A DNA stretch of 64,000 nucleotides, taken from contig JALVYU010000026.1 of assembly GCA_027022365.1 (NCBI GenBank), positions 288,001 through 352,000 of the forward strand, written 5' to 3'. A program made the position numbers and the translations under genes. A model generated the notes under the pieces. The model made no database searches, had not been told where the DNA came from, and was given only the letters and a program-made list of their open reading frames with translations. Below, one piece after another: positions 13,960-37,314 of this stretch. The stretch comes from Desulfurococcales archaeon (lineage in GTDB: Archaea > Thermoproteota > Thermoprotei_A > Sulfolobales > Desulfurococcaceae). The number at the start of each line of letters is the position of its first letter. Positions within the stretch are counted from its first letter, which is position 1.

Positions 13960-14065
13960 TGCCGCCGCCGGGATTTGAACCCGGGTGTCCCGCGCACGGG
14001 CCATGAGGACCCGCGGACACGGGCTCGAGAGGCCCGCATACTTGGCCGGGCTATACTACGGCGGC
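13960..14065 (-). tRNA. tRNA-Glu(CTC) with a 31-nt non-canonical intron at 45/46 (13987-14017)
   Basis: Mature sequence GCCGCCGTAGTATAGCCCGGCCAAGTATGCGGGCCTCTCGAGCCCGTG/ACCCGGGTTCAAATCCCGGCGGCGGCA folds as a cloverleaf; BHB-like junction CCCG-UG^U / CGGG-AC^A. Confidence 0.92.
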
Positions 14066-35806: not shown

Positions 35807-36405
35807 TTATCTATCGAGCTTAAAAACTCGGCTATTTTAACAGAGCATCTTTCACAATAATACATTGTCTTATAATCAACCTCAAAGACAGAGTTGCTGA
35901 AGCTCATAACACATTTAGGATTATTACAGTGCCCGAGACCTAGTAAATGCCCTAATTCATGAAGAATTTCTTTCGTCACGCGCTCGACGTAGAGATCATA
36001 CCTTTTGCCAGCATATTCACTAGCAGAATAAAATATCGGATCAAGCCTTTGAGCGGATACAAAAGCTATGCCTCTAGATGGAGAGGCCTCCCCAAACACG
36101 AAGTTAAGGCCTTCATCATAAGCATCTATGTATCCGACACCAATAACGAAAACACAGCCATCCCTAAGATCCCGAAATATCTCCGCGAGATAATCGAGTA
36201 TACACGGCCCAACATACTGTCTCCTAGACCAATCAAAACAAGACATCGGAAGCTTCAGGACCTCAGGCCATACCTCCACATCAATATACGGCGAAATACT
36301 GCTCAGGACCCCATATACATTCCTACGCCAATCCTCAATAAAATCAAAGACAAAACATCTAGTCAGCGGCACAATCAGTACCCTACTCCTCATTCCAGCC
36401 ATCAC
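35785..36405 (-). CDS. amzA: archaemetzincin (peptidase M54)
   Basis: LNFVFGEA, HELGHLLGLGHC..CVMSFSNS..VD.K...C..C. Confidence 0.93.
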   Translation of the reverse strand: MMAGMRSRVLIVPLTRCFVFDFIEDWRRNVYGVLSSISPYIDVEVWPEVLKLPMSCFDWSRRQYVGPCILDYLAEIFRDLRDGCVFVIGVGYIDAYDEGLNFVFGEASPSRGIAFVSAQRLDPIFYSASEYAGKRYDLYVERVTKEILHELGHLLGLGHCNNPKCVMSFSNSVFEVDYKTMYYCERCSVKIAEFLSSIDNHISRTK

Positions 36406-36467
36406 TTCACATACCTATGTGTAGAATAGTGCCGCCGCGGGGATTTGAACCCCGGACAACCCGGTCT

Positions 36468-37049
36468 TCAGCTTCGCCGGATCACCCGTGCCAGGAGCCA
36501 ATATTTTCTTTTATGGCTACTGCTTATATATTTTATCCACTTTGACACCTGTGCTACCCCATAGATTGCTAGCTTGTACGCCTTATCTGATTTCCGTATA
36601 TGTGAATTAATACCGTAATTTTGCACAAGTATAGATTTTACCTGATAAAGCAAAGCTACGCTTTTGCTTGTGATCTCTATGGTTGGGTACTCTTCTACAT
36701 CAGGCTTCCTAGTATAGAATATTGTTCAGTCAGTATCAAATATCCCCCTAATTAACATATTAACATACTCGTTTTTTACCAATTCCCGCGGAATTGTTAT
36801 TATTGAGCTCTTCTTACCGGTCGGGAATCCTAGTTGTTTAAAGATGTTAAATAATTGTTTTGACTTGAATTCTATTCGGTAGGCTTTTGAACGGTATTTT
36901 ATTTTTGGTCTCTTGCCAATAATTTTTTCTATAAGTCTTGATATATGGAGCGTGTATTCGTAATCTCCTTCAGCTATCGAGAAGAAGTATTTACAGTTTT
37001 TACTATGATATAGTGATCCATCTCCAATCATTATTCCATAGAATTCCAT
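36468..37049 (-). pseudogene. two-motif LAGLIDADG homing endonuclease with in-frame TGA at 36726-36728
   Basis: Motif 1 EFYGIMIGDG; motif 2 LIRGIFDTD*. The frame continues as TIFYTRKPDVEEYPTIEITSKS into ORF 36468..36653. Confidence 0.88.
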
Positions 37050-37138
37050 AAACTCCTTAGTGTTAATTATGCTAGCCGTATTAGAAAAAAGAGAAGAACA
37101 AGTATTAGAGGCAGAAAGGCTCCTGGCACGGGCGTCCA
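36473..37138 (-). mobile_element. 666-nt BHB-type intervening sequence carrying a homing endonuclease gene
   Basis: BHB AG-CGCC-CG^U-GGA / UCC-GGCG-AA^G-CU; 16-bp stem 37118-37133 with 36484-36499; AT-rich interior. Confidence 0.85.
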
Positions 37139-37314
37139 CGGGCGCTCTCCCGGGCTGAGCTACGGCGGCATCGCTTACTAACATATTAATGTTACTGGTT
37201 TATTAGTTTTTATGGAGTGGTCAATTATTTGTACTCCTTTCAACATTTATTATGTATGGCTAGGAATGTCTACGTTAAAGCTATGGGGCTACCTTGTCTT
37301 GGGGGTGATCTTAT

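Follow-up and report, generated by a model that had tools for sequence, protein, structure and literature searches.

Within a 64,000-nucleotide (nt) stretch of DNA from a hot-vent Desulfurococcales archaeon (NCBI GenBank assembly GCA_027022365.1, contig JALVYU010000026.1, positions 288,001 to 352,000 of the forward strand; hereafter the window, to which coordinates refer), the minus strand carries a transfer RNA (tRNA) gene for phenylalanine, tRNA-Phe(GAA), which is divided by an intron containing an open reading frame (ORF) of the LAGLIDADG homing endonuclease type. The 740-nt region consists of a 31-nt 5' exon, a 666-nt intron and a 43-nt 3' exon, with both exon-intron borders placed in a motif of the bulge-helix-bulge (BHB) type, and comprises the following features.

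37169-37139, minus strand: 5' exon of tRNA-Phe(GAA), 31 nt, comprising the 5' strand of the acceptor stem, the D arm and anticodon-stem positions 27-30.
37144-37141, minus strand: 5' strand of the central BHB helix (exon CGCC), pairing with GGCG at 36478-36475.
37140-37138, minus strand: 5' bulge CG^U with the 5' splice site, cut 37139/37138; unpaired in the RNAalifold consensus.
37138-36473, minus strand: BHB intron at Sprinzl position 30/31, exactly 666 nt; i(33,666) in ARAGORN -i.
37137-37118, minus strand: 5' arm of the intron, with a GGA helix (37137-37135), one unpaired C and a 16-nt clamp arm (37133-37118).
37056-37053, minus strand: GGAG, 3 nt ahead of the ATG, which may act as a Shine-Dalgarno sequence; only the sister species G005 has it too.
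37049-36468, minus strand: LAGLIDADG ORF, from ATG (MEFYG...) to a UGA stop that is tRNA U33-G34-A35, 5 nt into the 3' exon.
37040-37017, minus strand: LAGLIDADG motif 1 (YGIMIGDG), with G15, I18 and G19 near-invariant in an alignment of 12 sequences.
36752-36726, minus strand: LAGLIDADG motif 2 (IRGIFDTD + TGA), with an in-frame TGA (36728-36726) in place of the motif's glycine codon.
36499-36479, minus strand: 3' arm of the intron, with a clamp arm (36499-36484), GA and UCC (36481-36479), also coding for LLARVIRR.
36478-36475, minus strand: 3' strand of the central BHB helix (intron GGCG); one relative has GGUG, which retains a G.U pair.
36474-36472, minus strand: 3' bulge AA^G with the 3' splice site, cut 36473/36472; AA^G at 14 of 15 distinct loci and AG^G at the other.
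36472-36430, minus strand: 3' exon of tRNA-Phe(GAA), 43 nt, comprising G31, the anticodon loop CUGAAGA, the remainder of the tRNA and the discriminator A.

A preliminary description of this DNA, made from its letters alone, had claimed two tRNA halves in the right order that join to a clean tRNA-Phe(GAA), separated by a 666-nt intron at 30/31. Both claims held: the intron coordinates on the minus strand (37138-36473) were verified, and joining the exons by coordinates gave a 74-nt product that ARAGORN identified as a canonical tRNA-Phe(GAA), with an acceptor stem of 7 base pairs (bp), a D stem of 4 bp, an anticodon stem of 5 bp and a T stem of 5 bp. The Sprinzl numbering of the intron position takes account of a 9-nt D loop, and the predicted spliced-exon junction reads ...GAGCGCCCG/GCUGAAGA... 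(CCCG/GCUGAAGA). The intronless tRNA-Phe genes of relatives match each exon at 100% identity, so that the split-tRNA reading is not due to chance; removing the intron would restore a functional RNA, its predicted spliced form being identical to those intronless genes.

The split gene is the only source of tRNA-Phe that we could detect in this genome (G000; 1.74 Mb in 44 contigs, completeness 99.97%). ARAGORN with its intron option (-i) called 46 tRNAs, among which the split gene is the sole Phe; the 45 Rfam tRNA matches all coincide with ARAGORN calls of other anticodons, leaving the split tRNA-Phe as the single call without an Rfam tRNA match. The check for another tRNA-Phe(GAA) suggested at the outset thus left the split gene as the sole one, no second GAA tRNA being found in G000 by ARAGORN -i, Rfam or blastn, which implies that the cell depends on it. 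Its intron is far longer than the next-longest tRNA intron in G000, of 83 nt.

It had also been predicted that standard tRNA finders would miss the gene. This is true of ARAGORN in its default mode, which called two tRNAs in the window, and of Rfam at its gathering threshold, which called three, neither set including the split gene; it is not true of ARAGORN with the intron option, which recovers it as tRNA-Phe(gaa) i(33,666). At permissive thresholds, Rfam gave sub-threshold tRNA-like matches in the region at the 3' exon only. As a sole tRNA-Phe unseen by default finders, such a gene would leave its genome annotated without tRNA-Phe. Elsewhere in the window, a 106-nt Rfam tRNA (13960-14065, minus strand; 48.5 bits) is likewise missed by default ARAGORN and is presumably another intron-bearing tRNA, and many tRNA matches in G000 extend over 95-155 nt.

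The intron borders have the architecture originally proposed for them, a CGCC/GGCG helix of 4 bp flanked by bulges of 3 nt each (CG^U and AA^G) that hold the splice sites, backed by a 16-bp clamp (37133-37118 with 36499-36484). All specified pairs of the motif are standard, the clamp including one G.U. When the BHB was imposed on the 740-nt precursor, the predicted free energy was -203.2 kcal/mol, against a minimum free energy of -205.5 kcal/mol (a cost of +2.3), and the precursor fold had a z of -6.9 against shuffles. Comparison across relatives supported the motif further: all 15 distinct tRNA-Phe loci with an intron have a central helix paired at 4/4 positions and two bulges of 3 nt, and the helix adjoining the bulge ranges from 3 to 9 bp with varied sequences. 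In an alignment of nine short-intron precursors, 96.4% of cells were paired, compared to 34.7-52.4% for slid partners; the central helix was paired in 100% of cells, two-sided changes occurred in six of seven pairs of the adjoining helix, and the observed covariation score was reached by none of 500 shuffles. Among the long introns, the clamp shows compensatory changes of C:G to U:A and of G.U to A-U or G-C. Searched with Rfam covariance models at E<=10, the region 36300-37300 showed neither a group I/II ribozyme core nor any other intron in Rfam.

The host encodes both a splicing endonuclease and a ligase. Two tRNA_int_endo genes (PF01974) are present in G000, at 104.5 and 40.6 bits against a cut-off of 27, which is the expectation for an alpha/beta enzyme, together with an RtcB ligase gene (605 bits). 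We noted that G000 has two full-length RtcB matches, at C26:388867-390171 (605 bits) and C29:2021-3283 (545 bits), the second lying on a small contig, where it could be a paralogue or contamination.

The ORF carries two LAGLIDADG motifs, as had been claimed, with acidic residues in them, and it passed the profile check proposed at that time: with the TGA read as X, it matched Pfam LAGLIDADG_3 at 4.1e-10 (40.2 bits, cut-off 22.5) and LAGLIDADG_2 at 6.2e-09 (36.5 bits, cut-off 25). The residues of motif 2 are near-invariant in the family alignment. The motif 1 aspartate, D20, is present in the window and G005 copies and falls outside the conserved lists of the 12-sequence alignment; the intact copy of G005 has both motif aspartates, in the sequences GDG and DTDG. 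An AlphaFold2 model of the G005 protein (pLDDT, the predicted local distance difference test, 90.4; predicted template modelling score 0.89) shows the alpha-beta-beta-alpha-beta-beta-alpha double-domain fold, consistent with a monomeric two-domain LAGLIDADG protein. A Foldseek search with this model gave template modelling (TM) scores of 0.76/0.76 for I-Tsp061I and about 0.66/0.75 for I-DmoI, with further matches to the TliVMA and PI-PfuI intein domains. At E<=0.001 the search gave 139 matches in the PDB, the top ones listed being LAGLIDADG enzymes or their kin (inteins, a maturase, WhiA). By sequence, PDB matches were confined to intein endonuclease domains, that of a V-ATPase intein being the best (6.3e-05), and a weak one to I-HjeMI; neither I-DmoI nor I-Tsp061I was matched at E<=1. 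Coding sequence and RNA structure overlap at the end of the ORF, whose final residues, LLARVIRRS, are coded by the 3' arm of the clamp and the BHB.

The TGA in motif 2 had been guessed to derive from GGA, and GGA is what other copies actually carry. The sister species G005, of the same genus, has an intact 203-amino acid ORF that is 96% identical and reads GGA (Gly) at this site. A plus-strand C for A at 36728, equivalent to GGA, was also present in contigs of three of four metagenome runs from other studies, one of the three being a low-depth contig end, and the fourth run retains the TGA. Taken together, the sister species and the other metagenomes mark the break as a strain-level polymorphism, and to judge from these sequences habitats of the same kind also harbour intact alleles. 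With a nonsense codon in place of the motif 2 glycine, the window copy itself is probably immobile; the endonuclease of this genome is probably dead, and its intron only spliced.

We next surveyed relatives for the intron and its ORF. In a protein search covering 41 related genomes, strong ORF matches were confined to four genomes of the window's genus, G000 included, and all four copies lie at the same tRNA-Phe site beside the same tRNA-Gly(CCC), as follows.

G000: intron of 666 nt, ORF with one TGA.
G005: intron of 662 nt, ORF intact.
G003: intron of 633 nt, ORF with one TAG.
G002: intron of 670 nt, ORF with five stops.

The homologous introns that other genomes have at this site measure 662, 633, 670, 654 and 637 nt. 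A pattern search with the 3' exon (exact or <=3 mismatches) matched 48 of 63 family genomes in 49 places, 30 loci of which were read. Exons more than 200 nt apart, for which a search of relatives had been advised, were found at four of these 30 loci, as long introns of 633-670 nt; ten loci have short introns (27-84 nt), one is truncated by a contig end and 15 are intronless. The ten short introns occupy site 30/31 with a common core ((U/A/G)... and ...GGCGA(A/G)), and the truncated locus has the same terminal 11 nt as the other introns. The proposed link to non-canonical tRNA introns is thereby supported, the 27-84 nt introns of other genera having the same BHB core and the same site. In the 40-nt intron of G041, CCCGUGC...GCACGG remains, which is the base of the clamp and would be expected to persist if this intron arose from the long form by deletion. 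The simplest reading of the short introns without an ORF that other genera have at this site is that deletion left them as relics of an element of this type.

The site is also polymorphic for presence and absence of the intron, being intronless at the syntenic locus in G001, of the same genus, and in G022. No match to the 3' exon was found in G004, a genome of the same genus that is 93% complete. A wider scan of 185,579 species genomes, in which 317 loci were confirmed and the best 80 of these kept, found the same intron and ORF in Desulfurococcales archaeon records and in Candidatus Culexmicrobium cathedralense. The Culexarchaeial copy shares the clamp and the ORF, the latter with two frameshifts, and it resides in a different tRNA-Phe body, with GAAAA/UUUUC as the helix adjoining the bulge. 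A metagenome scan gave only three loci, of which one is a near-identical copy that also has the TGA, another is the Culexarchaeial contig already found and the third is a fragment. In three of four runs from vent metagenomes there were DNA contigs with other flanks that lack precisely the 666 nt; runs X2, X10 and X11 (window 36380-37220) also contain contigs with other inserts, of 32-34 nt, between the tRNA ends. These intron-less and other-insert contigs indicate that several tRNA-Phe alleles of different organisms co-occur, and the intron-less genes of co-resident organisms mean that potential targets share the habitat.

Divergence of the endonuclease does not appear to follow that of the host. 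Identity of the endonuclease to the G005 copy is 96% for G000, 74% for G080, 61% for G079, 59% for G003 and 52% for G002, and identity of RtcB to that of G000 is 98% for G005, 87% for G080, 66% for G079, 97% for G003 and 98% for G002. Such decoupling fits horizontal spread. In an unrooted six-taxon tree of the intron, the Culexarchaeial copy groups with G003 (support 0.95). As a test of transfer, nucleotide identity of flanks against intron gave a mixed outcome, with 82-90% against 68.8% in G002 and, in G003, 69-73% against 69.6%.

From these data we conclude, with a probability of roughly 0.8, that the locus is a BHB homing intron of a tRNA gene with a LAGLIDADG endonuclease inside, and that several stages of a homing cycle are visible at this one site: empty, intact ORF, one nonsense codon, several stops and ORF deleted. 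The original reading as a homing intron is thus supported, with splicing and homing themselves being inferred from sequence. The gene would be transcribed as a single precursor of ~740 nt, in which the ends of the intron would fold with the exon into the BHB; a host splicing endonuclease of the alpha2beta2 type would cut within both 3-nt bulges (CG^U and AA^G), and RtcB would ligate the exons into a normal tRNA-Phe, probably also circularising the 666-nt intron, closed by the 16-bp clamp. The endonuclease would be translated from the precursor or the circle. An intact enzyme would be expected to cleave tRNA-Phe DNA that lacks the intron, at position 30/31 or close to it, upon which repair from an intron-bearing copy would spread intron and ORF jointly; the ORF would later decay and be deleted, leaving short introns.

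A number of observations weigh against this interpretation. A search for sequencing runs containing the stretch listed none of RNA. The window ORF is itself broken by the TGA, and three of the five other genomic copies are broken too (one TAG in G003, five stops in G002 and two frameshifts in the Culexarchaeial copy). The mismatch between endonuclease and host identities could be due in part to faster decay of pseudogenes, and in G003 the flanks, at 69-73% nucleotide identity, do not stand clearly above the intron, at 69.6%. Start codons are not conserved, the Met preceding EFYG being found in some variants only. In the RNA, the flanking helix on the intron side is strong and covarying, and that on the exon side is an invariant 2 bp; the central helix takes, for its first pair, the nucleotide that closes the D stem and so competes with the last D-stem pair, which means that the precursor would need local refolding; and RNAalifold favours an alternative register with a 3-bp central helix. 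Given the short exon helix, the competition with the D stem and the 3-bp alternative register, the motif is a relaxed BHB rather than a clear case of the strict hBHBh' form with helices on either side, and relaxed motifs are attributed in the literature to crenarchaeal heterotetrameric splicing enzymes.

The variable start bears on how the protein would be made. The reading frame in the window is open upstream of the ATG, back through the 5' splice site, and the same holds for G003, G080 and the Culexarchaeial copy, the frame being closed in G005 and G002; moreover, the N-termini of four database proteins are translated exon or junction sequence. An open frame through the splice site together with a variable Met makes it likely that translation initiates at or before the 5' splice site. 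Further observations concern the same junction. A GUG straddles the 5' splice site (G30/UG; window 37139-37137, minus strand), in a frame that here, as in most variants, runs to the UGA (window 36470-36468); intron lengths of 666, 654 and 633 nt are multiples of three; and circularisation would join the last A of the intron to its first UG, creating an in-frame A/UG at a circle junction ...GGCGAA/UGGAC.... Speculatively, the circular intron or the unspliced pre-tRNA may serve as the mRNA of the endonuclease.

The origin of the ORF may be approached through its relatives outside introns. Seventy-six distant relatives among the best 80 of the 317 loci (L047-L122) are 31-39% identical to it; their hosts are mostly DPANN archaea, along with some metagenome-assembled genomes labelled Methanosarcinales. 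At 56 of the 76 loci, the ORF ends inside or <=80 nt from an ARAGORN tRNA call, 37 of these being called by default and 19 more only with the intron option. Most of the neighbouring tRNAs are Arg(CCU), on the strand of the ORF, or Thr(GGU), on either strand, and some are Phe(GAA); the stop codon often lies within the tRNA, for example at positions 8-10, and many of the proteins have an N-terminal extension of about 130 amino acids. These ORFs belong to the same family as the tRNA-Phe intron ORF, sharing with it the RGIFDTDG and YPTIEITS motifs, the linkage to a tRNA and, often, an end within the tRNA. Unlike it, however, the DPANN-type ORFs are located outside introns, and the adjacent tRNA is complete.

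We considered hidden introns at the DPANN loci and rejected them in favour of free-standing ORFs: no upstream copy of a tRNA segment of at least 11 nt was found in 24 of 25 loci, the remaining one (L083) having a single 16-nt upstream match that we assume to be part of another tRNA gene, and a look upstream for an alternative 5' acceptor strand was negative at 23 of 23 loci. An ARAGORN call of 'tRNA-Gly, 831-nt intron' at L073 was also rejected, having a weak D arm, an odd extra arm and a separate tRNA at the end of the ORF. The tRNAs beside DPANN- and Methanosarcinales-type ORFs often have short introns of their own (L112 2094-2224; L052 2127-2227), some near positions 30-33 or in the D arm, with ARAGORN anticodons that are unreliable here. 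This tRNA-linked, free-standing family may be the source of the intron endonuclease.

The strongest alternative starts from the same family. The BHB intron at 30/31 might be old, short and vertically inherited, with only a free-standing tRNA-associated LAGLIDADG gene having lodged later in its loop. This scenario draws on the short same-site introns of several genera, against an ORF-bearing form in one genus of the family and two further genomes only, and on the fact that the nearest outside relatives of the ORF are non-intronic, since at 56 of 76 loci they abut a complete tRNA gene, in some cases tRNA-Phe(GAA). In G041, however, the 40-nt intron still has the base of the 16-bp clamp, as would be expected of an intron shortened from the long form by deletion, the Culexarchaeial copy shares clamp and ORF within a different tRNA-Phe body, which fits transfer of the whole unit, and the C-terminus of the ORF is coded by the clamp arm and the BHB, so that protein and RNA structure overlap. 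We consider this scenario unlikely. The homing reading itself admits two directions, either invasion of the tRNA by the entire unit or entry of an endonuclease gene into an older short intron, and the two can alternate within one homing cycle.

It is improbable that the element is domesticated or kept for a benefit to the host, whether as a shield against virus or plasmid integration, as a maturase-like RNA factor or as a regulator. A 2014 review records a proposed role of introns in guarding tRNA genes against integration, Foldseek also matched the LAGLIDADG maturase bI3 and the regulator WhiA, and the distant relatives adjoining tRNA genes are positionally conserved; but intronless and ORF-less alleles are common in close relatives, the repeated decay of the ORF argues against host-level selection for the protein, and motif 2 remains near-invariant, with both motif aspartates kept in the G005 copy, which is intact. 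A tRNA gene disrupted by a mobile-element fragment and no longer functional, the true tRNA-Phe coming from a copy missing in the assembly, might be envisaged for a genome in 44 contigs whose split gene is skipped by default finders, yet this is very doubtful in view of its near-completeness and lack of another GAA tRNA, of intact exons whose borders are set exactly by a BHB that is conserved and covaries, and of the same arrangement in several species. Finally, a chimera that misplaced 666 nt between two tRNA halves, a concern for a metagenome-type assembly in which conserved tRNA exons draw many short contigs, has a negligible chance of being correct, since single contigs span the entire 841-nt stretch in three of four runs of other studies (1, 7 and 26 differences), ruling out an assembly artefact and answering the call for a check of continuity across the locus, and homologous introns occur in independent genomes.

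Non-canonical archaeal tRNA introns have multiplied and moved among tRNA genes, and a BHB intron of a tRNA gene that brings a homing endonuclease of its own provides a concrete, testable mechanism at the DNA level for such transposition. We tentatively propose, while rating it somewhat short of an even chance, that homing has been a route to non-canonical archaeal tRNA introns, that many short introns are its relics and that the endonuclease came from the free-standing genes widespread in DPANN archaea.

To our knowledge, endonuclease-bearing archaeal BHB introns are known only from ribosomal RNA (rRNA) genes. The crenarchaeal rRNA introns of I-DmoI and I-Tsp061I resemble the tRNA-Phe intron in being spliced by proteins, in their long closing stem, in the monomeric two-motif LAGLIDADG ORF that fills the intron, and in their patchy distribution and frequent ORF decay. 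They differ in that the host gene here is a tRNA, with the site at 30/31 in the anticodon stem, and in that the stop of the ORF is supplied by tRNA U33-G34-A35. The 16S rRNA gene of G000 has an intron of its own, encoding a two-motif LAGLIDADG protein of 225 amino acids that is 27% identical to the tRNA-intron ORF; this insertion, on contig C7 (L127 1-1846, ORF 451-1128), spreads Rfam positions 212-1478 over 1846 nt.

With short non-canonical archaeal tRNA introns, the element shares the splice logic of a BHB or relaxed BHB and the position class 30/31, and differs in its 666 nt and its coding capacity. The 2014 review, so far as its accessible part goes, places 30/31 among the known positions, with a split tRNA-Lys(CUU) at 30/31 in Staphylothermus and N. 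equitans, does not use the word 'homing' and terms the mechanism of intron transposition unknown; a 2023 meeting report, in the portion available, treats transposing tRNA introns as transposable elements and names no mechanism there. The early statement that no equivalent had been described agrees with our search of open-access full texts, which found rRNA cases only and no endonuclease-bearing BHB intron in a tRNA, subscription literature and supplements being outside its scope. Group I introns of bacterial and phage tRNA genes with homing endonucleases offer the closest functional parallel, as they are mobile, sit in the tRNA anticodon arm and, according to the accessible part of PMC3984707, encode endonucleases that target the intron-less allele. 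Those introns are self-splicing ribozymes, however, whereas the ends of the tRNA-Phe intron form a BHB for a protein enzyme; what is new here is a homing-endonuclease gene inside a protein-spliced tRNA intron.

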